From contig CAZQEW010000002.1 of NCBI GenBank assembly GCA_964591495.1, forward strand, positions 37-64,036: a stretch of 64,000 bases of DNA, written 5' to 3'. This document shows positions 13,083 to 59,515 of this stretch, piece by piece. The translations under genes were made by a program, and so were the position numbers. Numbering within the stretch: position 1 is the stretch's first letter; every line of letters starts with the position of its first letter. This DNA comes from an uncultured Klebsiella sp. Lineage in GTDB: Bacteria > Verrucomicrobiota > Verrucomicrobiia > Limisphaerales > SXTU01. Below the pieces are notes generated by a model. The model was not told the DNA's origin, ran no database searches, and worked only from the letters and a program-made list of their open reading frames with translations.

Positions 13083-14246
13083 ATGTCCCGCCGCAAAGCC
13101 ATCGGGTTTCTGCTCACCGGCCTGAACACCCTCGGCTGCGCCTACTTCGGCAACTACGTCTTCTTCCTGCTCCAGCAGCAGCACGCCTTCGGCGACCGCG
13201 AGAACCTGCTCGTCGGTGCGCTGCACGGGCTGATCTACGTGCCCGCCGCCTGGCTGGGCGGCCGCTTCGCCCAACGGCGCGGCCTGACCGCCTCCATGAA
13301 AGTCGGCTTCGCGGGCATGGCCTGCGCCATGACGGTCGGCGGCCTGCTGCCGACCCTGGCCGGCCTCTTTCTCAGCATGGCCCTCTGGACGGTCGCCATG
13401 TGCTTCACCTGGCCCGCGCTGGAAGCCCACGCCACCCACGGCGAATCCGACGCCGGCACCCAGCACATGGTCGGCATCTACAACCTCACCTGGTCCGGGT
13501 GCGCCGGGCTGATGTATTTCGCCGGCGGCACCCTGTTTGAAACGCTCGGCCCCCGCAGCCTGTTCTGGGTGCCCGCCGCCATCTACACCGCGCAGTTCAT
13601 CGGCGTGCTCCACCTGGAGGGCCTGCCCCACGACGCGCCCCCGCCCCCGGCCGCCGAACCGCACCACCCGGAAGCCGCCGCCCTTCAGCAGCCCGTCTCT
13701 CCCGTGACCTTCCTCAAAATGGCCTGGCTCGCCAACCCCTTCGCTTACATCGCCATCAACTCCCTGCTCGCCGTCATCCCCGGCCGCGCGGCCGAACTCG
13801 GCCTCACCGTCGCGCAAAGCGGCTGGTTCTGGGCCGTCTGGCAGGCGGCGCGCCTCGGCACCTTCGCCCTCCTCTGGCGCTGGGGCGGCTGGCACTACCG
13901 CTTCCGCTGGATGCTCGCGGCGTTCCTCGCGCTCATCACCGCCTACGTGGTGCTGCTACTGGGACGCTCCTTCGCCCTGCTGATCGCCGCGCAAGTCATC
14001 TTCGGCCTCGCCACCGGCCTGCTCTACTACGCCTCGCTCTTCTACTCGATGGACGTGGGCGAAACGCAGGGCGAACACGGCGGCATCCACGAAGCCGCCA
14101 TCGGCCTGGGCATCTGTCTCGGCCCGGCGGTGGGGGCTGGCGCGCTCTGGCTCGCCCCCGCCCAACCGCACGCCGGCGCATTCGGCGTCACGGGACTGCT
14201 GCTGATCGGACTGGCGGGATTGGTGGGTCTGCGCCTGCGGCGGTAA
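13083..14246 (+). CDS. MFS-type transporter
   Basis: About 12 hydrophobic segments. The WLGGRFAQRRG loop resembles the MFS G-x-x-x-D-R-x-G-R-R motif. Confidence 0.65.
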   Translation: MSRRKAIGFLLTGLNTLGCAYFGNYVFFLLQQQHAFGDRENLLVGALHGLIYVPAAWLGGRFAQRRGLTASMKVGFAGMACAMTVGGLLPTLAGLFLSMALWTVAMCFTWPALEAHATHGESDAGTQHMVGIYNLTWSGCAGLMYFAGGTLFETLGPRSLFWVPAAIYTAQFIGVLHLEGLPHDAPPPPAAEPHHPEAAALQQPVSPVTFLKMAWLANPFAYIAINSLLAVIPGRAAELGLTVAQSGWFWAVWQAARLGTFALLWRWGGWHYRFRWMLAAFLALITAYVVLLLGRSFALLIAAQVIFGLATGLLYYASLFYSMDVGETQGEHGGIHEAAIGLGICLGPAVGAGALWLAPAQPHAGAFGVTGLLLIGLAGLVGLRLRR

Positions 14247-14302
14247 GCGGTGAAAGTTGGGCGTTGAACGTTGGCCCTTTTTGCCGGCATGCTGGCCTCA
14301 CT

Positions 14303-15094
14303 ATGTCGTTACTCGCAGGCAAGATCGGACTCGTCTTCGGCGTCGCCAACAAGCGCTCCATCGCGTGGGCCATCGCGCAGGCCTGGCACAAGGCCGGGGC
14401 CACGCTGGCGTTCACCTATCAGGGGGAACGCCTCAAGGAGAACGTCGAGGAACTCGTCTCCACCTTCGGCCCGGACACGTTGCTGCTGCCCTGCGACGTG
14501 ACCAAGGATGAGGACATCAACGCGGTCTTTGCCGCCGTGCAGCAGAAGTTCGGCAAGCTGCACCTGCTGCTCCACGCCGTCGCCTTCGCCCCGAAGGAGG
14601 CGCTCGAGGGCCGCTTCGTGAACACCACGCGCGACGCCTTCAAGATCGCCCATGACGTGAGCGCTTATTCGCTCGTCGCACTGGCGCGCGGAGCCGCGCC
14701 GCTGATGACCGAGGGCGGGAGCATCGTGGCGATGAGCTACTACGGCGCGGAGAAGGTCATCCCGCACTACAACGTCATGGGCGTGGCCAAGGCCGCGCTC
14801 GAAGCCAGCACGCGTTACCTCGCCTACGACCTGGGCACGCAGAACATCCGCGTGAACTGCATTTCCGCCGGCCCGGTCAACACGCTGGCCGCGCGCGGCA
14901 TCGCCGGCTTCAGCGCCATGCTGAAGCACTACGAACAGCACGCGCCGCTCAAGCGCAACGTGCTCCCGGACGAACTCGGCGCGACCGGCACCTTCCTCGC
15001 CAGCGACGGCGCGGCGGCCATCACCGGCCAGGTGCTTTACGTGGACTGCGGCTATCAGGTCATGGGCATGACCGAGACGCCCAAGGCCGGTTAG
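14303..15094 (+). CDS. fabI: enoyl-[acyl-carrier-protein] reductase (NADH) FabI
   Basis: Collinear with E. coli FabI: LAGKIGLVFGVANKRSIAW, SYYGAEKVIPHYNVMGVAKAALEA, NCISAGPVNTLAA. Confidence 0.95.
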   Translation: MSLLAGKIGLVFGVANKRSIAWAIAQAWHKAGATLAFTYQGERLKENVEELVSTFGPDTLLLPCDVTKDEDINAVFAAVQQKFGKLHLLLHAVAFAPKEALEGRFVNTTRDAFKIAHDVSAYSLVALARGAAPLMTEGGSIVAMSYYGAEKVIPHYNVMGVAKAALEASTRYLAYDLGTQNIRVNCISAGPVNTLAARGIAGFSAMLKHYEQHAPLKRNVLPDELGATGTFLASDGAAAITGQVLYVDCGYQVMGMTETPKAG

Positions 15095-15106
15095 TCGCGA
15101 GACCCG

Positions 15107-15757
15107 TTACTTCAGTTCCCAAACGCGGACCTCGTCGAGGTGCACCTCGTCGGCGTCCTTGCCGCCGGTGCGGAAGACCACGCCCGGCTTCTTCACGTGG
15201 AAGTCCTTGCTGGTCGCGCGCAGCGGCTCCTTGCCATCGACCTGCGCGAGCACGTCGTCGCCCTTCACCTCGAGGAGCAGTTCATACCACTTGCCCGGTT
15301 CAAAGGCACCGGTGGCCTTGGCCAGCGCCTTGTTCGTGGACTTGGGGTCGGACTTGTCGTTGTGCTCCATGATGCTCCAGCCCGCCGGGGTGATGACGAC
15401 CGAAAACAGGTGGCCCTTCTTCTTCAGCTCGCCCGGCGCGGGGTCGAAGCCGAGGTGAAACATCTTCGCGCCGGCGAAGCGGAACTTCACGAGGATCGCC
15501 GCATCCTGCAACGGCAGCGGCCGGCGGAAGGCGGCGGCGTGCTGGTCGGCGGCGACCTCACTGGCCTTGAGCACGCCGTCGGTCACGACGAGCTTGCCGG
15601 TATTGCGGTTCCACAGCTTGGGCAGCTCCTGGCCGTCGAACTTCTCCTCCAGCAAGAGCGTGCCCGGCTTGCCGAGCTTCGGTTGCAGTTCGGCGGCGAA
15701 GGCGGGGGAAATGGCGAATGCAACGACGGAGGCGATCCAAACGGCGGACAGTTTCAT
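15107..15757 (-). CDS. secreted DUF1080-like (3-keto-disaccharide hydrolase / ConA-like fold) protein
   Basis: Signal peptide MKLSAVWIASVVAFAISPAFA. The W..N.GKLVV.DGVL pattern and the terminal VHLDEVRVWELK are typical of DUF1080. Confidence 0.55.
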   Translation of the reverse strand: MKLSAVWIASVVAFAISPAFAAELQPKLGKPGTLLLEEKFDGQELPKLWNRNTGKLVVTDGVLKASEVAADQHAAAFRRPLPLQDAAILVKFRFAGAKMFHLGFDPAPGELKKKGHLFSVVITPAGWSIMEHNDKSDPKSTNKALAKATGAFEPGKWYELLLEVKGDDVLAQVDGKEPLRATSKDFHVKKPGVVFRTGGKDADEVHLDEVRVWELK

Positions 15758-15826
15758 GCTGCGAAGGCGGACGAGAGCCGGTGCCGGCGGGTTACGCGCC
15801 GGCGGGCCCGGGCGCAAACCGCTTCA

Positions 15827-17248
15827 ATGGCCGGCCCGCACCGCGCGTCGAAACCCGCACTCATGCTCACCTTCCAAGACCGTCTGCATCGCCGCGGTTT
15901 CCTGCGCGTGGGCGGGCTGTCCCTCGGCGGGCTGACTTTGGCAGACTGGTTCGCCCTCAAGTCGCACGCCCGGACTCATCCGCATCTGCTCAAGGACAAA
16001 TCCGTCATTTTTCTCTTCCAGCACGGCGGGCCATCGCAGTTCGAAACCTTCGACCCGAAGATGGACGCACCGCGCGAGATCCGGTCGGCCACGGGCGAAA
16101 TCCCAACGCGGATTCCGGGCGTCACCTTTGGTGCCACGTTCGAGCGGCTCGCGAAGCTGAACGACAAATTCTCGATCGTCCGCTCCTTCCATACCGGCGA
16201 CGGCAACCATGACATCAAGCCCGTCGTTGGGCGCGACACCCTGCGCGCCAACATGGGCACCCTCTACGCCCGCGTGGCCGGCGCGCTGCGGCCCGACACG
16301 GCGATGCCCACCAACGTGGCGCTCTTCCCCCGCGCGGTGGATCCAGCCACCGGGCCAGCCATCACGCAGTTCGGCAACTTCGAGGCCACGGGCGAGTTCG
16401 GGGCGGCCTACGCGCCGTTCGTGCCGGGCGCAGGCGGAGGCCTGCAGGCGGACATGAAGCTCAACCTGTCTCCCGCGCGGCTCAACGACCGCCGCGAGCT
16501 GCTCGCCTCGCTCGACCAATGGAAGCGGCGCGTCGAGGCCGGTGGCACCTTTGCGGGGATGGACGCCTTTCAGCAGCAGGCGTTCGCGGCGCTGGAGCGC
16601 GGCATGTCCGATGCCTTCGACCTGTCGCGGGAAGACCCGCGGCTCGTGGCGCGCTATGACACCGCACCGCTGCTGCCCAAGGTCCGCATCAGTCCAGAGT
16701 GGAAGAACCGTGAGCATTACGCCGACAACGCCGCCACGCTCGGCCGGCTGCTGCTGCTGGCCCGCCGGCTGTGCGAACGCGGGGCAGGCTTCGTGACCGT
16801 CACCACCAGCTTCGTCTGGGACATGCACGCGGACATCAACAACGCGCCGATGACCGTAGGCATGGATTACGTGGGCCGGCCCTTCGACCACGCCGTTTCC
16901 GCGTTCATCGAGGACTGCGAAGCGCGCGGCCTGCGGGACAAGATTCTTCTGGTCTGCTGCGGGGAAATGGGCCGGACGCCCCGCATCAATGCGAAGGGCG
17001 GCCGTGATCACTGGGGCGGCCTCGCGCCGTTGCTGCTCTACGGCGGCGGCCTGCAGATGGGCAAAGTCATCGGTGCGTCCGCGCGTGATGGCGGAGCGCC
17101 CGCCGATAATCCGGTGACGATGCAAAACCTCCTCGCCACCGTCATGCACACCCTGCTTGATCTCGGCGAAGTCCGCGTGATGGACGGCCTGCCGAAATCG
17201 CTGCTGGACACCCTCACTGGAAGCGAGCCGATCAAGGGGTTGGTTTGA
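15827..17248 (+). CDS. DUF1501 domain protein (sulfatase-like fold, Tat signal)
   Basis: RRGFLRVGGLSLGG twin-arginine leader. Family-typical blocks FLFQHGGPSQFETFDPK, GEMGRTPRIN and GRDHWG. The start could be 15827 or 15863. Confidence 0.88.
   Translation: MAGPHRASKPALMLTFQDRLHRRGFLRVGGLSLGGLTLADWFALKSHARTHPHLLKDKSVIFLFQHGGPSQFETFDPKMDAPREIRSATGEIPTRIPGVTFGATFERLAKLNDKFSIVRSFHTGDGNHDIKPVVGRDTLRANMGTLYARVAGALRPDTAMPTNVALFPRAVDPATGPAITQFGNFEATGEFGAAYAPFVPGAGGGLQADMKLNLSPARLNDRRELLASLDQWKRRVEAGGTFAGMDAFQQQAFAALERGMSDAFDLSREDPRLVARYDTAPLLPKVRISPEWKNREHYADNAATLGRLLLLARRLCERGAGFVTVTTSFVWDMHADINNAPMTVGMDYVGRPFDHAVSAFIEDCEARGLRDKILLVCCGEMGRTPRINAKGGRDHWGGLAPLLLYGGGLQMGKVIGASARDGGAPADNPVTMQNLLATVMHTLLDLGEVRVMDGLPKSLLDTLTGSEPIKGLV
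17142..17248. repeat. direct repeat copy A (107 bp; last 35 codons plus stop of the DUF1501 gene)
   Basis: Identical base for base to 18907-19013 (tcatgcacaccctgcttgatctcggc...ggggttggtttga). Confidence 0.95.
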
Positions 17249-17325
17249 GCCACCTTCCGCTCAGCGCGGTGGCTTAAGCGCGGCGCCAAACCCTGCGAGC
17301 TGCGGCAAATCCCTGGAGTGGGCGG

Positions 17326-18042
17326 TCAGGAGGTTGATTCTGGTGCATCAACCGGAGAAGCGCTGCGAAGGCAGAACATCGCGGTCGCCAGAAGTGGGAG
17401 CGTGATGAGCCCATGATGAACCACCAAGTAAGGTGCCGTGAGCCGCTGTGTTGGGCTGAACGGCACATGCGTAACAACCAGTATGCGGTTGACGACTTCA
17501 CCCGCGGCGGTGCTGCACACCAGCAACACCCATCCAGCGATTATACGCTGTTTGTCTGCTAGCCCTAGGCCGAACAAAAGTGGAAGCGGTCCGGCCAGCG
17601 CTATTGCGACACCCTGCTGAAACAAGTTTCCACCAAAAATACCCATGCCAAGCACACCCAGACATGCCACCAGTTGCACACACAAAAAGAGCGTCATCGG
17701 TCGCAGTGTTTTTGGCAGGCCCAGTGCCACTTGGAACCACATGCCGCAGCTGATGCTCCACGCGGCGGCGAGCAACAGCCCGCCCACGTCTTCCCGCAGT
17801 AACAGGCGAAAACAGGCCAGCAGGACCACGGCGCACACGCCCGGCAACCGAACGGATGGAGATTCGCGGCGCAAAAGGAAGGCCGACACACATGCCAGAA
17901 CCGGCGTGATGACTAGCTCCCAAGGCAGGGTCAGGGCCGCTGGGAAAGCTCGCCACCCCCAAGGCAGAACACTCGCGAGCACCGCCAAAGCGAACAGCGG
18001 CCGCCCGCACAAAACTTTGAGGCCGGTTTCTTGGGCTGACAT
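17326..18042 (-). CDS. polytopic membrane protein, unknown family (paralog 1)
   Basis: About 6 hydrophobic segments. Shares W-x-ISCGMW...LRPM and HHGLITLPLLATAMFCL blocks with the neighbouring ORF. Start taken at MSAQETG (18042); the track ORF extends to 18222. Confidence 0.6.
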   Translation of the reverse strand: MSAQETGLKVLCGRPLFALAVLASVLPWGWRAFPAALTLPWELVITPVLACVSAFLLRRESPSVRLPGVCAVVLLACFRLLLREDVGGLLLAAAWSISCGMWFQVALGLPKTLRPMTLFLCVQLVACLGVLGMGIFGGNLFQQGVAIALAGPLPLLFGLGLADKQRIIAGWVLLVCSTAAGEVVNRILVVTHVPFSPTQRLTAPYLVVHHGLITLPLLATAMFCLRSASPVDAPESTS

Positions 18043-18094
18043 GCTGGGTAGCTGACGATCCCCCAAGCTCAGGTAGTCACTAACGGCGAGCCGA

Positions 18095-18790
18095 TCAAGG
18101 GCTTGGTGAAAGTGATTCCGCTTTCGGTCTGCGGGGGAGACAATACATCGCCGTGGCCAGCAACGGCAAAGTGACCGCCCCATGCCAGGCCAATGTATGC
18201 GGCAGGTCGCGCGGACTATCACCGAGATGCAGCACCCACCCGTGCAGGACGCTCCCGGCCACCACGCCGCTCAGCACCAGCCATGCAGCAGCGGCGGCTG
18301 GGCGCTTGGCCGCGATACGCCCGCCGACCAGCAGCGGAAGCACACTGGACACCGCCACCAGCATCGCGTTCCCCACAGCCGTTCCACCCCCCGCCCCCGC
18401 GAACAGTCCGACCGCGGCCCAGCCAGCGCACAACAGCAACAGTCCCCAGCCATAACGCATCATAGGCTTTAAGGACTCGGGCTTACCCATCGCCACCCAC
18501 ATCCACGCCCCGCAACTCACACCCCAGATCGCCTCTTCGAGCGGCCAGCTCCCCAGCAGCGCCACCGGAGTGAGCATCGCGGCCACTGTCACTGCTGCGG
18601 CTGTCCAAGCCGCCCGCAGTCCCCGCTCCCGCCACCACCACGTGGAGACACCCGCATACACGCCCGCCGCCAGCGCCGCCACACCGGCTGGGAAACCCCG
18701 CACGAACAACGGCAGCAACTCCACTATCACTCCCGAGACGAGCACCCAAATCCAATGCTTTGGCCAGGATGCTGGAGAAGGGAACGGCAT
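18095..18790 (-). CDS. polytopic membrane protein, unknown family (paralog 2)
   Basis: About 6 hydrophobic segments. WGVSCGAWMWVAMGKPESLKPM and WHGAVTLPLLATAMYCL match paralog 1. Confidence 0.6.
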   Translation of the reverse strand: MPFPSPASWPKHWIWVLVSGVIVELLPLFVRGFPAGVAALAAGVYAGVSTWWWRERGLRAAWTAAAVTVAAMLTPVALLGSWPLEEAIWGVSCGAWMWVAMGKPESLKPMMRYGWGLLLLCAGWAAVGLFAGAGGGTAVGNAMLVAVSSVLPLLVGGRIAAKRPAAAAAWLVLSGVVAGSVLHGWVLHLGDSPRDLPHTLAWHGAVTLPLLATAMYCLPRRPKAESLSPSP

Positions 18791-18906
18791 GCCTGCTCTC
18801 TAGTTCCACCGGAGACATCGTCAAGCCCATCGACAGGGTATCCAAAGCTGCTGACTGCGTGGGCAACGTCACCCCGGATGAATGGCGCGATTTCTTACAA
18901 CAACGA

Positions 18907-19013
18907 TCATGCACACCCTGCTTGATCTCGGCGAAGTCCGCGTGATGGACGGCCTGCCGAAATCGCTGCTGGACACCCTCACTGGAAGCGAGCCGATCAA
19001 GGGGTTGGTTTGA
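18907..19013. repeat. direct repeat copy B (107 bp, non-coding copy of the DUF1501 3' end)
   Basis: Identical to 17142-17248. It is out of any plausible reading-frame context and ends 21 nt before the uvrB stop. Confidence 0.95.
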
Positions 19014-19034
19014 TCGAGCCGACAGCGGCTGCCC

Positions 19035-21146
19035 TTACACTCTGGGCGTCCACTTCGGCATGCCATCCTTGCGGGACTTGGCTTTGCGGGGCTTGCCGTA
19101 GCTGAACGACTTGGCCGGTGCTTCGCCGCCGGCCATGCGCTTCAACTCGTTGATCTGGTCGCGGCACAGCGCGGCCTTCTCAAACTCCAGGTTGTTCGAC
19201 GCCTCGATCATTTGCGCTTCCAGCTCGCGGATGGTCTCGGTCACGTCGAAGTCGCCGGCGGCTTCGTTCAGCATCGCCTCGGCAGTGGCGCGCTCCTCCT
19301 TCTGCGAGCTGAGGCTTTCCTCGACGGCGCGGCTGACGCTGCGCGGCGTGATGCCGTGGGCAGCGTTGTAGGCGAGCTGCTTCTCGCGCCGATACTTCGA
19401 GACGGCGAGGAAGCGCCTCATGCTGTCGGTCTGCACGTCCGCGTAGAGAATGACTTCGCCGTGCAGGTGACGCGCGGCCCGGCCGGCGGTCTGGATCAGG
19501 CTGGTTTCGCTGCGGAGGAAACCTTCCTTGTCCGCATCAAGGATGGCGACGAGGGAAACTTCCGGCAGGTCGAGGCCCTCACGCAGGAGGTTGATGCCGA
19601 CGAGCACGTCGAACTGGCCTTTGCGCAGGGCGCGAATGATCTCGACGCGTTCGAGCGCATCCACCTCGCTGTGGAGGTAACGGACGTTGATGCCGATATC
19701 GCGGAGGTAATCGGTGAGTTCCTCGGCCGTGCGTTTGGTGAGCGTGGTGACCAGGACCCGCTCCTTTTTCTCGACGCGCTTGCGGCATTCTTCGATGAGG
19801 TCGTCAATCTGGCCCTTGAGCGGCTTGAGCGTGATGACGGGATCCACGAGGCCGGTGGGGCGGATGACGAGCTCGACGATGCCGTCGTATGGCCGGCCAG
19901 ACGATGGCCCATCGCTGACCCGGCGGATGGCCTTTGCACTGTCCCGTGCCCATTCCAGTTCACGCGGCGCGGGCGTGGCGCTCACATAAATGGTCTGCTG
20001 CTGGAGGGATTGGAATTCCTCGAAGTTCAGCGGCCGGTTGTCGAGCGCGCTGGGCAGGCGGAAACCGTGGTCCACCAGCACGGTCTTGCGGCTGCGGTCG
20101 CCGGCATACATGCCGCCAATCTGCGGCACGCTGACGTGCGACTCGTCCATCACCAGCAGAAAGTCGTCCGGCATGAAGTCGATGAGCGTCGTGGGCCGCG
20201 AGCCGGGCGGGCGCTGCGCGATGTGACGGGAGTAGTTCTCGATGCCAGGGCAGAAGCCGAGTTGCTCCAGCATTTCGAGGTCAAACTCGGTCCGCATCTT
20301 GATCCGCTGGGCTTCAAGCAGCTTGCCCTGCTTCTCAAACCACGCGATGCGATCGCCCAGTTCCTCGCGGATGGTGAGGATGGCGGCCTTGAGCTTTTCG
20401 TTGGTGGTCACGAACTGCTTCCCGGGATACACGACCACGGCCTCCAGTTCCTCCAAGACCTCGCCCGTGAGCGGCTCGAAGCGCGTGATGCGGTCTACTT
20501 CGTCGCCGAAAAACTCGAACCGCAATGCGTCCTCGGTGTAGCCGGGCCGCAGCTCGACGGTGTCGCCGCGCACGCGGAACTGCGCACGCTCGAAGGCGAC
20601 GTCATTGCGGGAATATTGGATGTCCACAAGGCGGGAGAGAAGCTGCTCCCGCGAGAGCGCCATGCCCTTGCGCACGGGGATGACCATGGCCTCGTAATCC
20701 TCTTTGCTGCCGATGCCGTAGATGCACGAAACGCTGGCGACCACCACCACGTCCCGGCGCGCAAAGAGCGAGCTCATCGTCGAGAGCCGCAGGCGCTCGA
20801 TCTCGTCGTTCCGGCTGGAATCCTTCTCAATGAACGTGTCGCTGCGCGGGATGTAAGCCTCGGGCTGGTAGTAATCGAAATAGCTGACGAAGTATTCGAC
20901 GGCGTTCCGCGGGAAGAAGGACTTGAACTCGGCGTAGAGCTGGGCGGCGAGGGTTTTGTTGTGCGAGATGACAAGGGTGGGCCGCTGGATCTGCTGGATG
21001 ACGTTCGCGACGGTGTAGGTTTTGCCCGAGCCGGTGACACCGAGGAGCACCTGATGCTTCGCGCCCGCCTGCAAGCCCGCGACGAGCTTCTCGATGGCCT
21101 GTGGCTGGTCGCCAGCGGGCGCGTAGGGAGCGGTCAGTTCAAACAT
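19035..21146 (-). CDS. uvrB: excinuclease ABC subunit B
   Basis: [14 protein letters not shown]...[14 protein letters not shown] box (VMDESHV), and C-terminal UVR domain ([17 protein letters not shown]). Start at MFELTAPY matches E. coli N-terminal spacing. Confidence 0.96.
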
Positions 21147-21372
21147 CACGCCGACGGTAGGAAGGAGCGGAAGCCGAGTCAAACGGCCGCAAGAAGGCGT
21201 GCAGCCTGGCCTGAACTAGGCGCCGCAGGCCCTCGACTCAGGCATGAAGCCGCCGCCGCCCGGCCGTGGCATGCTTGGACCACACACCCTGACAGCCGGC
21301 GGGCCCGCAATGATCGGTGATCTGATCGCTGATTCACACTCGCCCCACGGCTCGGCCTGTGCATAAATCCTC

Positions 21373-24210
21373 GTGCTCTACGTGAAGCGAGCCGTGTCAG
21401 CCAAATCAGATGCCCCCGCATGCTCCGGGGGGCCGGGAGTCCGCATTCGCTTGCGTGCCCCGCTGTCCCATCCCCCGCTCAGGCTCCTTCAGCTCGCCGT
21501 GTGGCATGCGTTAATCTCCACCTTCGCCACGGTCGCTGCACTGGCGGCCGAGCCGGCCGAGCTCCGCCGCAAGCTTTTGGCCGGTGAGCCCATCGTGTTT
21601 GCGGCTGACCAGGCTGAGACTGCGCGCACGCTTCCCGCAGCCTGGCTGGCTGAAGCAGCGCACAAGGGCATGGCCGTTAATGTCTCGCGGGCGGTGATCG
21701 TGGAGCCGCTCGACCTGCGCCACGCCGCGGTGACGAACAGATTCCGGCTGGCCCAATGCACCTTCAAAGCCGGAGCCAACTGCGCATTTGCCGTCTTTGA
21801 GCAGGGCTTTGACTTCACGGACAGCCACTTCGCAACCAATGCCAACTTCAATGGGGCGATCGCTCGGCGGGCAGCGCTGTTGCGCAGCACCAGTTTTTCG
21901 GGCGACGCGATCTTCACGGATGCGACGGCGGAAGACATTTTCCTCGCCGAGGGCGCGGCCTTCCTCGGTCCTCTCGTTCGTTTTGACCGGGCAAGCTTCC
22001 TGAAGTCCGCCTATTTTGGACCGAGCACTGGCTGGCCGGCCGCCTCGTTCGGCGGAAGCGTCTCCTTTGCCAACGCGCGATTCGCAGGGGCGGTGAATTT
22101 TGACCGCGTGCGTTTTGGGAGGCCGGACAGCTCGACGGATTTCCGGGAAGTCCGCTGTGAACGAACGGCCAGTTTCCGGGGCACGGAATTCCGCGGGCCG
22201 GCGCTGTTCAGCACGGCTACGTTCCTCGGCACGGTGATGTTCGGTCCGGAGGCTACCCAAACGAGGGCGGTGCCCGCTGCCCGGTTTGTTGGCCCCGCTG
22301 ATTTTGGCAGTGTGCAATTTGGCGGCGAAGCTGACTTCACCCAGGTGCAGTTCCTGACCAAGTCCCCCGTCAGCTTCGATGGCAGCTCGTTCAAGGATTA
22401 TGCGAAATTCGGTCAGGCGCACTTTGCAGGTGGGGCGCTGTTCTCCCAGGCCACCTTTGGCTCATTGGCCGAGTTTGATAAGGCGCGTTTTCTGGGCACA
22501 GATGAAGGGCCGGCCGTAAGTTTTCAGGACAGTTCGATCGGGGGGCGGGCGAACTTTGCATCCGCCCAGTTCGCTGGAGCGGCCGACTTCCGCAACACGC
22601 GATTTGCCGGTGAAAGCTTCTTTAACGGAGCGGTGTTTGCCGCAGAGGCGCTGTTCACCTATGCCCGCTTTGGCCACACCGTGTCGTTTAGCGCACTCCA
22701 GAACAGCGATGTGCCGGGAGCCACCTTCGCCGACATGGCTGTTTTTTCGGGCGTAAAGTTCGAACTGGACGCCTTTTTTGAGCGGGTAAGCTTCACGGCA
22801 ACCAATCGGCCGGTATCATTCTCGGGGGCCATCTTCGGGGCTGAGACGGCTTTCGATGGGGCACAGTTTTCAGGCGACGCGAACTTTGTCCGCGCCACCT
22901 TCACTTCAGCGGCAACGTTCACGGAGGCAAAGTTTCTGAACCCTGCCATGACGGCCCAGTTCAATTCGATCAAGGCAGGAAAAACGCTGAACTTCACCGG
23001 CGCACGATTCGCCGGACCATTCGACTTCGTCGCGGCCGAGGCCGTGGGCCCCGTGCAGTTCGCCAGTGTCGTGTTCGGCGGCGAAGCATCTTTCAACGCA
23101 ATGGCCGTAGAGCGGCACGCGGTGTTCGGCCCGCTCGGAACGAACCCGCCGACGCGTTTCCACAAATCGGCCGATTTCATCGCGTCACGCATCGGCGGGC
23201 AACTCGACTTGGCGGCCGCGCGCTTTGACGGCGAGGCGCTGTTCCGGGGAGCCAACTTTCAGCGCGGCTTGATTCTAAGCTGGCGCCCCGGAGGCACCGG
23301 CCCCGTGCAGGCGGCGGAGTTTCGGGCCAAGGTTGACTTTCGCAATGTGCAGGCGGCCGAGCGCGTGCAAATGGCCGGGGTCACCTTTCATGATCAGGTG
23401 GCTTTCGACTCGACGAAATGGGATGTGCCAATGGCCTTTGAGGAAGTGCGCTTCCGGAAAGGCGCGAGCTTGACCCGGGCAGCCTTCTCGCAGGGCGCCG
23501 ATTTCAGCACCGCACGGTATGAGGGAACCCTGGATCTGACGGATTCCAATTTTCGCACGCTCCGGCTGACCACACTGTCACAATGGACCGATGGTCCGAT
23601 TGAGCTGCGCGGGGCAACGTATGAGGAGTTCATCGGCAACGTGGGGGCGCTGCTGGAGGCCTTCACCCGGCCGGACCGTCCCGTGCTCACGCGGCTGGAG
23701 CGTTCCCTGAGGCAGGTAGGTCAGGACGATGAAGCCGACATTGTTTACCTGCAGAACCAGAATCGGGAGCGTCAGCAGTGCTGGGCCGAGAGCAAGTATG
23801 GCGAATGGTTTTTCCGGTCGCTCTACGGCGTCCTCGGCAACTATGGCGTGCGCCCCTACCGACTGCTCTTCTTTTCGATCGGGCTGGTGTGGCTGGGCGC
23901 GCTGGTCTTCCAGATTCCCGGTGCCGTAGCGCACAAGAACGCGCGCTCTGGTGGTGCCAGCTCGCCAGCGCGCATCACCCGGTTTGAAGCGGTCGCATTG
24001 AGCATCTGCTACTTCCTGCCGGTGGAGTTCCCCCTCGAGGAGGAATGGGTGGCCGCGACAGCCCCATTGAGTTACCGGGTTCCCTGGCTGAGTAGACCCA
24101 TCGTGCTGCGGCCCGCGGCGATAGCGAACTTTCTCCTGCGGCTTTCAGGCTGGGTGGTGGTTCCGCTGGCCTTGGCGGCAGTCACTGGCCTGCTGAAGAC
24201 CAACGGCTGA
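21373..24210 (+). CDS. very large pentapeptide-repeat protein with C-terminal transmembrane module
   Basis: Hundreds of residues have 5-residue periodicity (ANFNGAIARRAALLRSTSFSGDAIFTDATAEDIF...). The C-terminal part has hydrophobic helices (LLFFSIGLVWLGALVF, GWVVVPLALAAVTGLL). Start uncertain: GTG at 21373, and no ATG in the first ~98 codons. Confidence 0.75.
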   Translation: MLYVKRAVSAKSDAPACSGGPGVRIRLRAPLSHPPLRLLQLAVWHALISTFATVAALAAEPAELRRKLLAGEPIVFAADQAETARTLPAAWLAEAAHKGMAVNVSRAVIVEPLDLRHAAVTNRFRLAQCTFKAGANCAFAVFEQGFDFTDSHFATNANFNGAIARRAALLRSTSFSGDAIFTDATAEDIFLAEGAAFLGPLVRFDRASFLKSAYFGPSTGWPAASFGGSVSFANARFAGAVNFDRVRFGRPDSSTDFREVRCERTASFRGTEFRGPALFSTATFLGTVMFGPEATQTRAVPAARFVGPADFGSVQFGGEADFTQVQFLTKSPVSFDGSSFKDYAKFGQAHFAGGALFSQATFGSLAEFDKARFLGTDEGPAVSFQDSSIGGRANFASAQFAGAADFRNTRFAGESFFNGAVFAAEALFTYARFGHTVSFSALQNSDVPGATFADMAVFSGVKFELDAFFERVSFTATNRPVSFSGAIFGAETAFDGAQFSGDANFVRATFTSAATFTEAKFLNPAMTAQFNSIKAGKTLNFTGARFAGPFDFVAAEAVGPVQFASVVFGGEASFNAMAVERHAVFGPLGTNPPTRFHKSADFIASRIGGQLDLAAARFDGEALFRGANFQRGLILSWRPGGTGPVQAAEFRAKVDFRNVQAAERVQMAGVTFHDQVAFDSTKWDVPMAFEEVRFRKGASLTRAAFSQGADFSTARYEGTLDLTDSNFRTLRLTTLSQWTDGPIELRGATYEEFIGNVGALLEAFTRPDRPVLTRLERSLRQVGQDDEADIVYLQNQNRERQQCWAESKYGEWFFRSLYGVLGNYGVRPYRLLFFSIGLVWLGALVFQIPGAVAHKNARSGGASSPARITRFEAVALSICYFLPVEFPLEEEWVAATAPLSYRVPWLSRPIVLRPAAIANFLLRLSGWVVVPLALAAVTGLLKTNG

Positions 24211-24236
24211 CTCACCTCGGGCCGGCAGGAGCAGGA

Positions 24237-24659
24237 TTACTTTTGCCCAGCCTGTTTCGTGTAGGCCGTGACGGTCTTGATCCGGGCCGATTTCGCTGCG
24301 TCCATCACCTTCACGAGTTGGCCCACGGGGGCGTCCGTATCCGAACGGACCGCCAGAACGAGGTTCGGATTTGCCCGCACCTTGGCCGACAGCTCCTCCT
24401 GCAAGCGTCCCACGGTCATCGGTTTGCCGCCGAAATGGAGATGCGGTGGAGATTTGACTATGTCCACAAACACGGGCGGCAGTTTTTCGGCGACACCTTC
24501 CTTGGCCTGCGATGATTCCGGCAGGGTAAGCTTGACCGCCGGCTGCTGGCGGAAAGTCGTGCTCACCATCAGGAAGATCAGGACCACCATCAGCACGTCG
24601 ATCAACGACACGATGATGACGGCGGGCGGCGAACGGCGTTTACGGGAGGTGAACTGCAT
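24237..24659 (-). CDS. exbD: ExbD/TolR biopolymer transport protein
   Basis: 140 aa. N-terminal single TM, VIIVSLIDVLMVVLIFLMV, with periplasmic domain. Confidence 0.85.
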   Translation of the reverse strand: MQFTSRKRRSPPAVIIVSLIDVLMVVLIFLMVSTTFRQQPAVKLTLPESSQAKEGVAEKLPPVFVDIVKSPPHLHFGGKPMTVGRLQEELSAKVRANPNLVLAVRSDTDAPVGQLVKVMDAAKSARIKTVTAYTKQAGQK

Positions 24660-24665
24660 GGCCGG

Positions 24666-25265
24666 TCAGGCGCGGTTGGCAGCCCGGTATTGCCGCTGGA
24701 GAAACTCATCGCACAAGGTCTCCATTTCGACCGCCAGGTTCTCCACCTTCTTGCTAAAGTAACTCCACGCGACGAGAGAAGGGATGGCCACGAGCAATCC
24801 CATCAGGGTCGCGCGGAGGGCGAGGGCGATGCCGGCGGCAAACACGCTGTTGTCACCGGTCAAGGCCTGCTGCCCCAACCCTGTGAACAGGAGAATCAGC
24901 CCATATACCGTGCCGACCAGACCCAACAACGGGGCAATCCCCGTGACGATCTCCAGCACCACCAATCCCCGCTCCAGCTGGGCCATCTCATGCCGCGCCT
25001 TGGTTTGCAGCGCGTCCACGTTTTCGCCCTTGGGGCAGTCCAGATGGCTCGCAGCCACCAGCAGCAGCCGCCCCAGCGGAGACGGGTGCTGTTCGCACAG
25101 GCGCCGAAGCATGGGTAAATCGGACTCGGACTGACAGTTCTCTACGGCATCTGCAAGCACCGGCGGAATGACGCGCGCAGCCCGCAGTGCCAACGCCCGC
25201 TCAACTATGAAGGTCACGCTGACCACCGAGGTCAGCGTCAGCAAAATCATGATGGCCTGTTCCAT
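24666..25265 (-). CDS. exbB: MotA/TolQ/ExbB proton-channel protein
   Basis: 199 aa with three TM segments. The GIAPLLGLVGTVYGLI and ALRATLMGLLVAIP blocks are typical of ExbB/TolQ. It ends 6 nt upstream of exbD. Confidence 0.85.
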   Translation of the reverse strand: MEQAIMILLTLTSVVSVTFIVERALALRAARVIPPVLADAVENCQSESDLPMLRRLCEQHPSPLGRLLLVAASHLDCPKGENVDALQTKARHEMAQLERGLVVLEIVTGIAPLLGLVGTVYGLILLFTGLGQQALTGDNSVFAAGIALALRATLMGLLVAIPSLVAWSYFSKKVENLAVEMETLCDEFLQRQYRAANRA

Positions 25266-25337: not shown

Positions 25338-26795
25338 CTAGGCCAGCACGGACTGGATGACCTGCCCATGCACGTCCGTGAGGCGACGTTCGATGCCGTT
25401 ATGGTAGAAGCTCAGGCGCTCGTGGTCCAAGCCGAGGAGGTGCAACACCGTCGCGTGCAGATCATAGATCGTGGTCACGTCCTGCACCGCGCGGTAGCCA
25501 AACTCGTCCGTCGCACCGTAGCTGAATCCACGTTTCACCCCGGCACCGGCCAGCCAGATGGTGAAGCCGCTGGGGTTGTGATCGCGGCCGCTAGCCCCTT
25601 TTTGGAAGGTAGGCATCCGGCCGAACTCGGTCACAAACATCACCAGTGTATCCGCCAGCAGCCCGCGCGACTTCAGGTCACGGAGAAGCGCGGCGCAGGG
25701 CTGATCAAGGATGTTCGCGTGACCGGGATATTGGTTGGCGATGGTTTTGTGCCCATCCCAGTTGCCGACGCCCTCCCCCATCGCGTAGGCACCGTTGAAG
25801 AGCTGAACAAAACGCACCCCGCGCTCCAGGAGACGGCGGGCGAGCAGACAGTTCTTGGCAAAGCCGGCCTTGTTTCTGTTCGGATCGTCAACGCCATACA
25901 ACGCAAGCGTCGCCGCGCTTTCGCCACGCGTGTCGCCGACTTCGGCGGCGGCCAGCTGCATCCGGGCGGCGAGTTCATAGCTGGCAATGCGCGCCGAAAG
26001 TTCGGTGCCACCGGGATGCTGCGCGAGATGACGGTCGTTGAGGAACTTAACTAGGTCCCGGGTCGCCACGTCCGCGCCTTCGCTGATGGAGGCCGGCCGC
26101 GCCAGGTTGGCAATGGGTTTGTCCGCGTTGAAGGGCGTGCCCTGATAGGCGGCGGGCAGGAACGCGGAAGCCCATTGGCGGGTGCTGATCTGCGGCACGC
26201 CGCGCGGGTCAGGAATCGCCACATAAGCGGGAAGATTTTGGCCCTCGCTGCCGAGGGCGTAGGTTACCCATGCGCCCATGCTGGGGAAACCATCCAAAAT
26301 GTAGCCGGTGCTCATCTGACTCTCGGCCGGACCATGGGTGTTCGACTTGCCAGTCATCGAATGGATGAAGCACAACTCATCCGCCAACTCCCCGAGGCAC
26401 GGAAGCAGCTCGCTGGTCATCTTGCCGCTCTGCCCACGGGGACGGAACTCCCACAGCGGCTTGATAAGGTTGCCGTTTTCGCCCTGAAACGTGACCAGCC
26501 TGTCCTGTCCCGGCATGGGCGTGTCGTGCCGCTTCAACAGCTCGGGCTTGTAGTCGAACGAATCCACATGGCTCAACGCGCCGGTGCAGAACACCATCAG
26601 CACGCGCCGGGCTCGCGGGACAAAGTGCGGCGGGCGGGCGGCATAAGGCCGCTCCGAATCAATTACCGGCCGGATGGGGGGGCGGTCGGACGCCAACAGA
26701 GACGTGAGGGCCAGACCGCCCAAACCCATGCCGCCCAGCCCAAGCAGTTCCCGTCTTGCAACGATGCGGTTACGAAAAATCGCCTGATGGTTCAT
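25338..26795 (-). CDS. DUF1501 domain protein (Tat signal)
   Basis: [17 protein letters not shown] leader. Family blocks ...[25 protein letters not shown] and GRDHNPSGF. Confidence 0.9.
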
Positions 26796-26829
26796 GTAAA
26801 CAAAATGGCTGAAAATTGGGCTTGCGGTG

Positions 26830-26851
26830 AGTATGGCATCGATGCCATACT
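26830..26851. promoter_or_regulatory. 22-bp perfect palindrome, candidate vapBC operator
   Basis: agtatggcatc|gatgccatact is self-complementary over all 22 nt and ends 6 nt before the vapB ATG. A possible -35 ttgcgg (26822) and -10 catact (26846) overlap it. Confidence 0.5.
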
Positions 26852-26857
26852 TACTCC

Positions 26858-27154
26858 ATGAAAATGACCATGCACATCGACGAAGGCATCCTCGAGAGAG
26901 TGATGAAATGGACCGGAGCCAGCAGCAAAACCGAAGCCGTAGACCTCGCGCTCAAGGAAATGGACCGGAAAGCCAGACTCGCCGAATTCGGAAAAGCTGG
27001 CCTCGGCCTGACCCGGGCGGAACTCATGGAAGCCGTGGATCCGAGCTATGACCTCATGTCCCTGCGTTTGGCGGAGTCCCCTGGAGCATTGCCTCCGCCG
27101 GCCGGACCGGTGGGTCCGGTCACTTACCGCAAGGCCGGGCGCTCCAAAAAATAA
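26858..27154 (+). CDS. vapB: type II antitoxin, VapB (DUF2191) family
   Basis: [31 protein letters not shown] matches the M-x-T-x-D-I-D...L...A....G..tK.eAV..AL.e pattern of PF09957-type antitoxins. It lies 12 nt upstream of a PIN gene. Confidence 0.8.
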
Positions 27155-27166
27155 CAGACACCTCCT

Positions 27167-27553
27167 GTGCTGCTCATCGATTCCTGCATTTACATCGAGC
27201 ATCTGCGAGCCGGCCGCGACCCGGCGCAAGTGTTTGCGCCCTACGCGCAACAACACGACCTCTCTACCTGCGGCATCATCCGGTGCGAAGTCCTGCGCGG
27301 CATGCGCACCGCCAAGGCGAGACGAGCGCTGGCAGATTACATGGGCTGCCTGCTCTACATCCCCACACTCAACAATGTTTGGGAGGCCGCCGAAGAAATC
27401 CTGTGGCAGACCGACCGTGCCGGCTTCCGAATCCCTGTCTCTGACGCGATAATCGCCGCGTGCGCCATCAAGACGAATGGTGCGGTGCTCACCCACGACC
27501 GGCACTTTCGCGCCATCTCCGGGCTGCGGGTGTTCGACGAGTTTCCTGGATGA
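27167..27553 (+). CDS. vapC: PIN-domain ribonuclease toxin VapC
   Basis: GTG start. Acidic quartet in the expected order: LLIDS (D5), CEVL (E), SDAIIAA (D), THDRHF (D). Confidence 0.8.
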   Translation: MLLIDSCIYIEHLRAGRDPAQVFAPYAQQHDLSTCGIIRCEVLRGMRTAKARRALADYMGCLLYIPTLNNVWEAAEEILWQTDRAGFRIPVSDAIIAACAIKTNGAVLTHDRHFRAISGLRVFDEFPG

Positions 27554-27571
27554 GTCAAAGCGCATCGAGGT

Positions 27572-32132: not shown

Positions 32133-33176
32133 ATGCATTCGGAACTACATGGCAGCTTCATGACCATGAAGGAGGCGGAGGTGGTGGCGGATTATGGGGA
32201 TGCAACTGCCGAACACGCGGCGCTTCGCGGAGCCGTTGGCGTGCTGGACCTCTCCTGCCGGGGCCGTGTCTGCCTGACCGGTGCAGACCGCGTGAAGTTC
32301 CTGCATGGCCAGGTGACCAACGACGTGCAGCGCCTTCGCGTCGGCGCGGGATGTTATGCCGCGCTCGTGAACGCCAAGGGCCGGATGCAGGGCGACTTGA
32401 ACATCTACTGCCTGCCAGATGAACTGCTGCTCGACTTCGAGCCGGGTTACACCGCCGCCATTGTGGATCGACTGGAGAGATTCATCATCACCGATGAGGT
32501 TCAAGTGGTGGACGCCGCACCGCATTATGGCCTGCTGAGCGTTCAGGGGCCGCAGGCAACGGAAGCGATCAATCAACTCGGCCTCTCTTGGCCGCTGCCC
32601 AGCCAGGCCCTGAGCTACAGTGGGGTGCTGGACGCGACGTTGGGCCAGCTCTATCTCATGAACCACGCCCGCACAGGTTCGAAGGGTTACGATCTGTTCG
32701 TCCCGACCGCCGCGCTCGGCGCAGTGTTCGACAAGCTGGTGGCAGCCGCAAAATCCCTTGATGGTAGGGCCTGTGGCTGGCGGGCGCTGGAAGCTGCCCG
32801 CATTGAAGCGGGCATCCCACGCTTCGGCCAAGATATGGACGAAGGCACTCTCCCGCCCGAGGCGGGCCTGGAAAGCCGAGCCATCAGCTACAGCAAGGGC
32901 TGTTACATTGGCCAGGAGGTCATCGCCCGCATCCGCACATATGGACAGGTGGCGCGCGCGCTGCGTCGCCTGATCATCCCCGCTGACCTCAACCCACTCC
33001 CCGCGACCGGGGATAAATTGCTCGCCGACGGCAAGGAGGTCGGCCACCTCACCAGCGTGATTCCGGGCCTTGGCCTCGGCTACGTGCGCAAGGAGCATTA
33101 CGCACCCGCCACGCAACTAATACTGCAAACGGCTGCCCGCGAAGTAACGGTGGAGGTTGCGCTCCTGCCGAGATGA
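32133..33176 (+). CDS. folate-binding GcvT-fold protein (YgfZ/CAF17-like aminomethyltransferase family)
   Basis: VGVLDLSCRGRVCLTGADRVKFLHGQVTNDV and the C-terminal KGCYIGQEVIARI motif. Start uncertain: ATG at 32133, 32160 or 32166, or the GTG at 32181, which follows a strong aaggagg. Confidence 0.8.
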   Translation: MHSELHGSFMTMKEAEVVADYGDATAEHAALRGAVGVLDLSCRGRVCLTGADRVKFLHGQVTNDVQRLRVGAGCYAALVNAKGRMQGDLNIYCLPDELLLDFEPGYTAAIVDRLERFIITDEVQVVDAAPHYGLLSVQGPQATEAINQLGLSWPLPSQALSYSGVLDATLGQLYLMNHARTGSKGYDLFVPTAALGAVFDKLVAAAKSLDGRACGWRALEAARIEAGIPRFGQDMDEGTLPPEAGLESRAISYSKGCYIGQEVIARIRTYGQVARALRRLIIPADLNPLPATGDKLLADGKEVGHLTSVIPGLGLGYVRKEHYAPATQLILQTAAREVTVEVALLPR

Positions 33177-33243
33177 AGCGTGTGAAGCACCGGGCTTTTC
33201 CCGCGTGACTTTCCTGCGCCCTCATGGCATTTCCACCGCCGCT

Positions 33244-33852
33244 ATGCACAAGAAACTTTTGCTCCCGCTGCTCATGTTGGCCATCGCGTTTGGCGTCTCT
33301 TCCGCGCCTGCGCAGGACAAAAAGGAAGAGAAGAAGCCCGCCGCGAAGGAAGTCGCCGTGCTCAAGTTCAAAGACTTCGGGGACATCGTCGTGGAATTCT
33401 ACCCCGAGGTCGCGCCGGGCCACGTGGAGAACTTTAAGAAGCTCGCCAACCAAAAGTTTTACGATGGCACCCAGTCCCACCGGCTCATCCCCGGCTTCAT
33501 GATCCAGCTCGGCGACCCGCTCACGAAGGATCCGAGCAAGGAAGCCTTCTGGGGCACGGGCGATCCCGGCTACAAGATCAAGGCCGAGTTCAACGACCGC
33601 CCGCATGACAAGGGCGTGCTCTCGATGGCCCGCAGCGCCAGTCCAGATTCCGCCGGCAGCCAGTTCTTCATCTGCTTCAAACGCGTCGCCCACCTCGACC
33701 GCCAATACACGGTGTTTGGCAAGGTGCTCAAGGGCCTCGACGTGCTGGACAAGCTCGAAGCCGTCCCCGTCGGCGGCGCGCAGGGCAGCAAGCCGCAGCG
33801 CCCCGTCGTTCTCGAAAGCGTCAAGATCGCCCCCGCCGACTCAATCAAGTAA
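33244..33852 (+). CDS. peptidylprolyl isomerase, cyclophilin type, exported
   Basis: Signal peptide MHKKLLLPLLMLAIAFGVSSAPA, then FHRLIPGFMIQLGDP-type core and SMARS...DSAGSQFFI. Confidence 0.92.
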   Translation: MHKKLLLPLLMLAIAFGVSSAPAQDKKEEKKPAAKEVAVLKFKDFGDIVVEFYPEVAPGHVENFKKLANQKFYDGTQSHRLIPGFMIQLGDPLTKDPSKEAFWGTGDPGYKIKAEFNDRPHDKGVLSMARSASPDSAGSQFFICFKRVAHLDRQYTVFGKVLKGLDVLDKLEAVPVGGAQGSKPQRPVVLESVKIAPADSIK

Positions 33853-33874
33853 CCACCGCCGTCTTCCCCACCCC

Positions 33875-52130: not shown

Positions 52131-52146
52131 AAAAATAGAAGGTTAA

Positions 52147-52353
52147 TCAGCCGCTACGTTCCCGGAGAATTCCAGCAACCAGTCCCGCGACGAACATGGC
52201 AGCGACCAGAAAGGTGCGCAGCCCGCCGGCGGGCAGAAAGTAGTATAAAGCGAAAGCCACCGCGCCCGCCAACAGCATGGTCAACGCGAACCGCCAATGC
52301 TCGACCACGTTGACTAAGTCGATCAAGTCCAGCAGCCATTCCCAGAGGTGCAT
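52147..52353 (-). CDS. small two-helix membrane protein
   Basis: 68 aa with two hydrophobic helices. It is packed between the two pilT-family genes (gaps 16 and 21 nt). Confidence 0.45.
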   Translation of the reverse strand: MHLWEWLLDLIDLVNVVEHWRFALTMLLAGAVAFALYYFLPAGGLRTFLVAAMFVAGLVAGILRERSG

Positions 52354-52374
52354 GGTGAGAAAGGCGGACCATGG

Positions 52375-59370: not shown

Positions 59371-59515
59371 GGTCAGCGGCTCCCATTCCTGGCGGAAGGG
59401 AGCCCCTCATCGGCGATGGTTGCGCCCGCGTTTGCGGAATTGCGCGAGCCAGCCAGACTAATTGTTGAACTCAGTTGAGTCACAACCAAGCCCGCCACCA
59501 CCAACAACCCCGGGG

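Follow-up and report, generated by a model that had tools for sequence, protein, structure and literature searches.

A strain-variable islet of two ORFan membrane-protein genes bracketed by duplicated ends of a DUF1501 gene in a freshwater Limisphaerales species

Results

The locus and its repeats

This study concerns a 1765-bp block (17249..19013) in a 64,000-nt stretch of contig CAZQEW010000002.1 from an uncultured member of the Limisphaerales (Verrucomicrobiota), hereafter the window, where two membrane-protein genes, here called A and B, lie between the 3′ end of a DUF1501 gene and the convergent gene uvrB (Table 1). The last 107 nt of the DUF1501 gene (R) occur at the end of the gene itself (R1) and again beyond A and B (R3); the two copies agree at 107/107 nt, start 1765 nt apart, and form the sole perfect long repeat in the window. 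An earlier reading of this DNA from its letters alone, the sequence-only reading, had described an exact repeat that ends 21 nt before the uvrB stop at 19035, and both points are correct, but its composition of 35 codons plus TGA needs amending to 2 nt of a Val codon, 34 sense codons and TGA. The 1658 nt between R1 and R3 hold A and B, both on the minus strand, and these are the only open reading frames (ORFs) in the insert with a coding signal. A partial third copy, R2, which the sequence-only reading had overlooked, separates the two genes, with 26/31 nt (84%) equal to R positions 73-103; read in antisense it supplies the last 4 codons and the stop of gene B, and the DUF1501 stop has been lost in it. 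All three tips have the same orientation, at spacings of 863 and 902 nt, and their left edges differ (R position 1 versus R position 73), while the identity of R1 and R3 spans the full 107 nt and ends exactly where homology to the gene ends, at the TGA. The JGI annotation calls a 43-aa “hypothetical protein” at 18882-19013, which is the R3 tip plus 9 upstream codons.

No terminal inverted repeats were found flanking the insert. Homology past the repeat boundaries or among the cassette flanks was nowhere significant (best p about 0.05 before multiple-test correction), and the flank of R1 (17249-17325) had no homology to the flanks of R2 or R3. The locus gave no match in Rfam and nothing in a promoter scan, terminator-like matches all fell within coding sequence, and hairpins beside the tips folded no better than shuffled sequence, including a 12-bp stem at 17243-17279 that takes in the TGA (z=-0.56). 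No integrase, transposase or tRNA was found in the 64-kb window, the check for recombinase domains covering 40 neighbouring ORFs plus DUF1501, uvrB, A and B; the sequence-only reading had likewise seen no integrase, terminal inverted repeats or tRNA. Its remark that the insert is lower in G+C holds for the A half (60.9%) and fails for the B half (64.9%), compared with 64.0% for the window. More telling is the G+C content at third codon positions (GC3), which is 0.64 in A and 0.74 in B versus 0.85-0.90 in DUF1501, uvrB and fabI.

The arrangement recurs in independent assemblies. Five assemblies from other metagenomes span both copies; contigs from other assemblers that also cover both outer junctions, at 99.85-99.95% identity, are L002, an ENA MEGAHIT contig whose record name gives k141, a k exceeding the repeat length; L007, a JGI contig of 9074 nt that runs from the pentapeptide gene through uvrB, the insert and DUF1501 to past fabI; and the JGI contigs L008 and L009. 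Logan contigs L005, L006 and L010 break 30 nt into an R copy, L006 at one end only, which k=31 would lead one to expect. The locus is carried by samples ERZ27275609, JGI 3300081883, 3300079837 and 3300051209, DRR333371 and SRR15927520.

Empty sites and relatives

Three loci with a single R and no insert emerged when JGI metagenomes were scanned and cluster members traced. The closest, L093 (Ga0172367_10004893, 16.4 kb), is from the same species and has the gene order fabI, a 236-aa protein, DUF1501, convergent uvrB and a pentapeptide protein. Its one R is 107/107 identical to that of the window, its left flank matches the flank of R1 at 98.3% over 3075 nt and its right flank that of R3 at 96.5% over 6115 nt (L093 359-3433 corresponding to window 14174-17248 and L093 3327-9430 to window 18907-25021, with the one R common to both). 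Single-nucleotide differences between the window and L093 keep the same density as far as the junctions. In L174 and in L095, a 39.6-kb contig with 81-86% nt identity, DUF1501 and uvrB are likewise adjacent, 21 nt apart with one R, and the DUF1501 proteins are 93% and 90% identical in amino acids, respectively. The DUF1501 protein is the same in filled and empty alleles, P0022 being the window sequence and P0025 differing from it only outside the tip.

With L093, L174 and L095 empty, the empty state is ancestral, and the 1765-bp block is therefore a derived, strain-variable insertion in a freshwater species of the Limisphaerales. DUF1501 directly before a convergent uvrB is the arrangement that the sequence-only reading had envisaged in relatives, and the single-R alleles bear out its view of an insertion flanked by a duplicated target gene end; A and B are not conserved at the site in all relatives, three of which are empty.

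The closest DUF1501 orthologs in GTDB genomes are 85-88% identical in amino acids and come from metagenome-assembled genomes (MAGs) of Limisphaerales or Verrucomicrobiota. In 79 GTDB ortholog loci neither uvrB, A, B nor a duplicated tip was found near DUF1501, and about 158 other DUF1501-ortholog loci contained no AB gene and no duplicated DUF1501 tip. The gene downstream of the ortholog varies from species to species, in every species examined, and the DUF1501 3′ flank appears to be a synteny breakpoint. In a Limisphaerales MAG (L017, WRPG01000025, 4761-5300) a 179-aa hydrophobic ORF is convergent to the orthologous DUF1501 and ends 10 nt past its stop; it was considered as a member of the AB family and rejected as unrelated.

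Other haplotypes

Contigs from further haplotypes were partial, L001, L003, L004 and L173 being about 1 kb or less; L001 comes from ERR14789957, L003 from SRR22387988, L004 from ERZ23496790 and L173 from ERZ27292823. L011 (98.9%) carries A, R2 and part of B, and L173 (97.6%) the spacer, R3 and uvrB. The R3 of L173 has 2 substitutions, one replacing a conserved Met by Thr in the frame of DUF1501, which fits a copy that no longer codes and is free of constraint. The number of cassettes varies: L001 has, in order, a long R tip, an allele of B (B′) that overlaps the tip with its 3′ end, the spacer and the first 30 nt of R, with no A. The sequence-only reading had treated the insert as a single unit, which does not hold, since R2 marks two stacked cassettes and L001 has B without A. 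The L001 tip corresponds to R positions 29-103 with one mismatch and ends in frame with GTG TAG, and the junction of acaacaacgatc with ATGCAC is the same in L001 and the window. On its sequence, R2 is a genuine tip remnant, its homolog in L001 being the DUF1501 end, still in frame, next to B′. Compared by eye, R2 and the L001 tip differ at 7/36 positions, near the synonymous divergence (dS) of 0.21 between B and B′, and R2 thus fits an L001-type tip freed from coding constraint once A sat before it.

Mismatches between B and B′ are spread evenly over the body of the gene (8.7%), with 4 mismatches in 18736-18936 and none in 18830-18936; the spacer at 18791-18906 has 3 mismatches against L001 and 1 against L173. 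L173 covers 402 nt of uvrB, and in this stretch any two of the window, the empty L093 and the filled L173 differ at 11-13 positions, so presence or absence of the block does not track flank similarity, which points to loss via the repeat or to strain-to-strain transfer. Perfect identity of the repeat had been taken as a sign of a recent event, and this is not borne out: the junction of spacer and R3 is common to haplotypes about 2.5-3% apart in flanking DNA (L173, L001), B has a dS of about 0.21, and with about 1.7 differences expected between R1 and R3 from a haplotype divergence of 2.4%, the probability of seeing none is, by our own estimate, about 0.2. In scaffold L012 (ENA ERZ28615284 scaffold_412305), an unrelated, lower-GC stretch of 118 nt (1-118) is joined inside B at window position 18366, and the rest of the scaffold, 408 nt, matches the window throughout. 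The scaffold is either chimeric or derived from a disrupted allele.

Genes A and B and their family

A and B are homologous (37% identity over 140 aa, E=5e-14) and match no Pfam family, in agreement with the earlier description of two homologous same-strand genes between the copies in an unplaced family. Amino-acid identity is 35% between A and B, 37% between B and P0005, the homolog on L003, and 59% between A and P0003, the homolog on L004. A is thus as distant from B as B is from P0005, and dS between A and B is saturated, which makes them ancient paralogs that were stacked and not duplicated in situ. Both are real genes under purifying selection: the ratio of nonsynonymous to synonymous divergence (dN/dS, omega) is 0.29 for A against P0003, and for B against B′ it is 0.24, with an omega of at least 1 in the other two frames, which marks B as a real gene whose alleles are old.

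Hydropathy and a low-confidence AlphaFold2 model (predicted local distance difference test score, pLDDT, of 60 from a 5-sequence alignment) give about eight helices where about six hydrophobic segments had been counted earlier. A and B are predicted to be polytopic accessory proteins of the inner membrane, in which Cys, His and Lys occur at conserved positions. Neither had a significant match in Pfam, NCBIfam, PADLOC, PHROGs or PDB sequences, the sole profile match being that of P0005 to NF051875 at a non-significant E=5.4, and a Foldseek search of the pLDDT-60 model against PDB gave a best E of 1.2, with none below 1 and no fold assigned. A described protein family for A and B was rejected for want of a significant curated-profile or structure match.

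Homologs were sought in 5.8 billion clusters and by a full HMMER scan of 1.84 billion cluster representatives. The AB family amounts to five clusters among about 15 billion proteins, made up of A, B, the A-like fragment P0003, the distant full-length homolog P0005 and near-identical variants. Queries with A, B and the five-sequence alignment returned near-identical sequences and P0003 only, and the scan of representatives added just P0003 and P0005. Back-translated scans found no AB relatives in GTDB genomes, JGI metagenomes or IMG/VR, and tblastn of B found no match among PLSDB plasmids and INPHARED phages. On L003, 5 nt separate the P0005 stop from the TGA that closes a DUF1501 end reading DTLTGGEPIKSLV up to its stop. 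On L004 (584-664) the A-like gene is cut off after about 137 residues; the 5′ part of a tRNA (Rfam RF00005, 33.5 bits) lies 24 nt beyond it, a context unlike that of a DUF1501 tip. About 30 nt of the region upstream of A (18043-18076) are similar, by eye, to the region upstream of the L004 gene, the similarity ending near 18073-18076.

Flanking genes and the window

The DUF1501 protein has a Tat-like RRGFLRVGG signal near its N-terminus, and its C-terminal 34 aa are highly conserved among orthologs. It has no PSCyt2/PSD1 partner; a second DUF1501 gene in the window does stand near a PSCyt2/PSD1 (DUF1549/DUF1553) gene (25338-30211), the usual arrangement in the Planctomycetes-Verrucomicrobia-Chlamydiae (PVC) group, and the tip of this paralog is without the R core described below. 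Otherwise the window holds housekeeping and typical PVC genes. Among them are a ComEC competence-channel gene and two tandem PilT/PilB-type ATPase paralogs (59462-61972 and 50922-53487), the latter sharing a 117-nt repeat at 74%. Beyond uvrB lies the gene for a 945-aa pentapeptide-repeat protein (21373-24210, PF13576) that is hydrophobic in its C-terminal region; the GC3 of this gene is low, at 0.74. Divergence between the window and L093 peaks at about 21100-22100 (21, 15, 6 and 16 mismatches per 200 nt, compared with about 4 elsewhere in uvrB). Two tandem cyclophilin-type peptidyl-prolyl isomerase paralogs at 33157-34402 share a 256-nt direct repeat at 77%.

Table 1. Coordinates of the features at the DUF1501-uvrB locus, in window positions
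Feature	Position	Strand	Remarks
DUF1501 gene, 473 aa	15827..17248	+	Pfam PF07394, E=1.4e-59; JGI 473-aa gene call on L007
R1, left 107-nt copy	17142..17248	+	functional 3′ end of DUF1501; equals the single R of empty allele L093
Block missing from empty alleles	17249..19013		equivalent to 17142-18906 owing to repeat ambiguity
3′ flank of gene A, 77 nt	17249..17325		unrelated to native DUF1501-uvrB spacer
Gene A, 238-aa polytopic membrane protein, AB ORFan family	17326..18042	-	paralog of B; GC3 0.64
Upstream region of A, 34 nt	18043..18076		ends at R2 junction
R2, orphaned decayed DUF1501 3′ tip	18077..18107	+	L001 counterpart is a long R tip with in-frame TAG
Gene B, 231-aa polytopic membrane protein, AB ORFan family	18095..18790	-	GC3 0.74; dN/dS 0.24 against L001 allele
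Spacer upstream of B, 116 nt	18791..18906		far better conserved between haplotypes than B body
R3, orphaned native DUF1501 tip, right repeat copy	18907..19013	+	inside 43-aa ORF 18882-19013
Native spacer from DUF1501 stop to uvrB stop, 21 nt	19014..19034		follows the single R in L093, 1 mismatch at 19034
uvrB, 703 aa (JGI call)	19035..21146	-	Pfam UvrB_inter, Helicase_C, UvrB, UVR; convergent with DUF1501

Discussion

The patterns detected at this locus are probably those of an integrase-less, strain-variable islet in which two AB cassettes were stacked by recombination anchored in the 3′ end of DUF1501, a reading that we favor with some reserve. The ancestral state would have had DUF1501 and uvrB 21 nt apart. 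Donors would be genomes with an AB gene convergent to a DUF1501 3′ end, so that an incoming fragment would bring a copy of that end with it; the linkage of P0005 to a DUF1501 tip in L003 means that this convergent association is older than the present insertion, and it explains why incoming DNA carried the anchor. Such a fragment could have entered by a single crossover after circularization (Campbell-type insertion-duplication), or by a homologous crossover on the DUF1501 side and an illegitimate join on the other side (3′-end displacement). The two routes give the same product and the data cannot separate them; from the earlier suggestion of a Campbell footprint, the insertion with target duplication therefore stands, and the circular form is indistinguishable from 3′-end displacement. 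The short unitigs L001 and L005 would fit a circular form as well as a chromosomal one. The left edges of the tips differ in the manner of illegitimate or fragment-end junctions and not of a fixed attachment (att) site, and identity halts exactly at the TGA because the homology between donor and resident halts there.

Each event would rebuild an intact DUF1501 and push the earlier 3′ tip downstream as an orphan. R3 (107 nt) would then be the native tip beside uvrB and R2 (31 nt, decayed) the tip that arrived with or before B, and the likely order is B first, then A. Entry may have been by transformation; the ComEC and PilT-like genes of the window are compatible with DNA uptake but are widespread genes. 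Later spread or loss among conspecific strains would follow from ordinary homologous recombination, and RecA-type recombination of R1 with R3 would delete the islet precisely and restore the empty allele. That the repeat offers a route of loss had been proposed before, and at 107 bp it is a plausible substrate for precise loss.

Several points weigh against this account. Neither the hypothetical circular intermediate nor a donor genome has been observed. The account does not explain how a DUF1501 tip, native up to the TGA, first came to lie beside A, and the equality of R1 with the native R calls for a conspecific donor or for gene conversion afterwards. Campbell integration driven by RecA would have had little homology to work with at the R2 junction, about 31 nt. 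The size of the contigs limits the context of L001, L003, L004 and L173, and the L001 tip beside B′ could be internal and not a live gene end. A further objection lies in the core of the tip. The 10-mer CCGATCAAGG (E-P-I-K-G codons) is intact in all three tips, as is the 14-mer GAGCCGATCAAGGG, and in a 1.39 Mb background of related loci the 10-mer has 12 exact matches, 11 of them at DUF1501 tips. L003 (Logan SRR22387988) has in its positions 1-80 three copies of the 10-mer, one mismatched, at an exact spacing of 22 nt, in a repeat unit of TCGGACGG, then C or A, then CCGATCAAGG. This array lies 220-265 nt upstream of P0005 on the P0005 strand, opposite in orientation to the DUF1501 tip at the far end of the gene, and each copy reads S-D-G-P-I-K; judged from these letters, the copies may be decayed tips, or binding sites of a recombinase or a regulator. 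Core and array together could mean a sequence-specific recombinase or regulator instead of plain homology.

The core lends some weight to a site-specific explanation, which we regard as unlikely. A and B would be integrase-less hitchhikers, a recombinase encoded elsewhere would recognize the tip core around GAGCCGATCAAGGG, and R1, R2 and R3 would be attL, an internal att and attR of a tandem accretion. Three same-orientation tips bounding two single-gene cassettes with the 14-mer kept in each, a 10-mer that is near-absent outside DUF1501 tips yet occurs three times in register upstream of the L003 homolog, and the return of the AB/DUF1501-tip association in a distant lineage would all be accommodated, and elements that keep attL and attR without an integrase are a known class (PMC6323972). 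However, no recombinase was found in the window, the unequal left boundaries of the tips are those expected of illegitimate joins, and identity covers the whole 107 nt to end with the gene homology. Moreover, the inverted L003 copies can be read as decayed S-D-G-P-I-K tips, the AB family was not found in plasmid, phage or viral collections, and the other DUF1501 ortholog loci are without tip insertions. A specific version, which strikes us as rather improbable, is that AB is an unrecognized single-gene cassette that targets the 3′ tip of one DUF1501 orthologue group at core CCGATCAAGG with a recombinase acting in trans. Such cassettes would stack in the way of integron cassettes with a protein-coding gene end as attachment site, and the L003 array would hold candidate recombinase sites.

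Alternatively, the arrangement A-R2-B-R3 could be old, with L093, L174 and L095 each having lost it by recombination of R1 with R3. A 107-bp repeat eases precise deletion, the B alleles are old, and conspecific haplotypes with and without the block show about equal divergence in uvrB, so that at least L093 could be a secondary loss. As an account of all three empty sites this is nonetheless distinctly doubtful, given that it needs three independent precise losses, some at just 90-93% DUF1501 identity, and would not account for the foreign-looking GC3 of A and B or for the lack of an AB gene beside any of about 158 orthologs in other species. It would also require R3 to have stayed 100% or 98% identical to R, which is hard over the divergence of L095 (81-86% nt) without constant gene conversion. 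In-situ tandem duplication, in which one resident AB gene and tip were duplicated by unequal crossing-over and then diverged, would suit three tips at 863/902-nt spacings that resemble a tandem array and a pair of paralogous genes. We hold it to be very improbable, since A and B, at 35% identity with saturated dS, are as far apart as B and P0005, and A is nearer to the L004 homolog; R2 has decayed but R1 and R3 match throughout, the junctions do not share one R position, the cassette flanks are not homologous, and the empty ancestral site has no AB gene at all. A mis-join that created the second repeat copy or the insert would be in keeping with Logan short-read de Bruijn unitigs (k=31) that stop inside R, but is scarcely conceivable when five independent assemblies of different samples and pipelines, the k141 contig and the 9-kb JGI contig among them, cross both copies with unique flanks. 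The sequence-only reading had named mis-assembly as a possible source of its repeat, and the contigs spanning both copies speak to that directly.

The stepwise, homology-anchored stacking that we favor has counterparts in known systems. With Campbell insertion-duplication it shares identical direct copies that bracket the insert, a segment that is single-copy at the empty site (L093), an intact target gene, no need for an element recombinase, and an empty site restored by recombination between the copies. It differs in that a circle or vector-like donor is unknown and the homology is short (107 nt at R3, about 31 nt at R2), and in consisting of two successive events at one gene end, seen as variation within a natural population of an uncultured Verrucomicrobium. 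Arrays formed by C-terminal displacement at rhs, vgrG and type VI secretion system (T6SS) effector loci were reportedly described by Jackson et al. 2009. There, as here, an intact gene is followed by same-orientation orphan 3′ ends interleaved with cargo, with successive growth and strain variation. For the orphaned 3′-end arrays of rhs/T6SS loci, a homologous anchor and an illegitimate join have been proposed (Kirchberger et al. 2017, PMC5361080; PMC8125069). Unlike those arrays, the tips at the present locus are one conserved C-terminus, found in all orthologs, and not alternative toxin domains; the DUF1501 protein is unchanged and is a sulfatase-like exported protein, not a polymorphic toxin; and the cargo lies on the opposite strand and is not known immunity genes (no PADLOC, Pfam or NCBIfam match).

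Cis-mobilizable elements (CIMEs) keep attL and attR after loss of the integrase and show tandem accretion at gene 3′ ends (ICEberg 2.0, PMC6323972). The islet resembles them in being integrase-less DNA with direct repeats that include a gene 3′ end and an internal third site between two modules; it departs from them in that a cognate integrative and conjugative element (ICE) or integrase, of which none was seen in the 64 kb, and an att core are not known, the tip boundaries differ, and the modules are single genes of about 0.85 kb. In the minimal mobile elements of Neisseria, strain-varying cassettes, or none, lie between the same conserved genes and are exchanged by transformation and recombination in the flanks. 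A variable cassette or none between two fixed genes is common to both, whereas the Neisseria elements are not known to be defined by a long gene-end duplication or by stacked orphan tips. Other classes were considered and rejected: a prophage, ICE or integrative and mobilizable element, as the insert contains only A and B and no integrase or recombinase gene; an integron gene cassette, as there is no inverted-repeat structure at the ends and no integrase, and the boundaries are coding-sequence fragments; and an insertion sequence or transposon, as there are no terminal inverted repeats and no transposase and the duplication is 107 nt.

What is new here is insertion-duplication or 3′-end displacement at a non-toxin gene with ORFan cargo on the opposite strand. 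The practical value is modest, as a strain-tracking marker and as a case from nature on which gain and loss by recombination can be tested in metagenomes. The locus also flags a short core that could be a site of recombination or regulation, or neither, and there is a small chance that it hides a new cassette system. It defines a new and extremely rare family of polytopic membrane proteins repeatedly linked to DUF1501 ends in uncultured freshwater Verrucomicrobia. Arrays of orphaned 3′ ends are not limited to polymorphic-toxin loci and can be read elsewhere as the footprint of stepwise acquisition; at this locus the conserved end of a resident gene is the probable anchor, one whose homology is portable. 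The site has filled, half-filled and empty alleles and offers a clean case in which accessory genes apparently come and go without mobile-element machinery.

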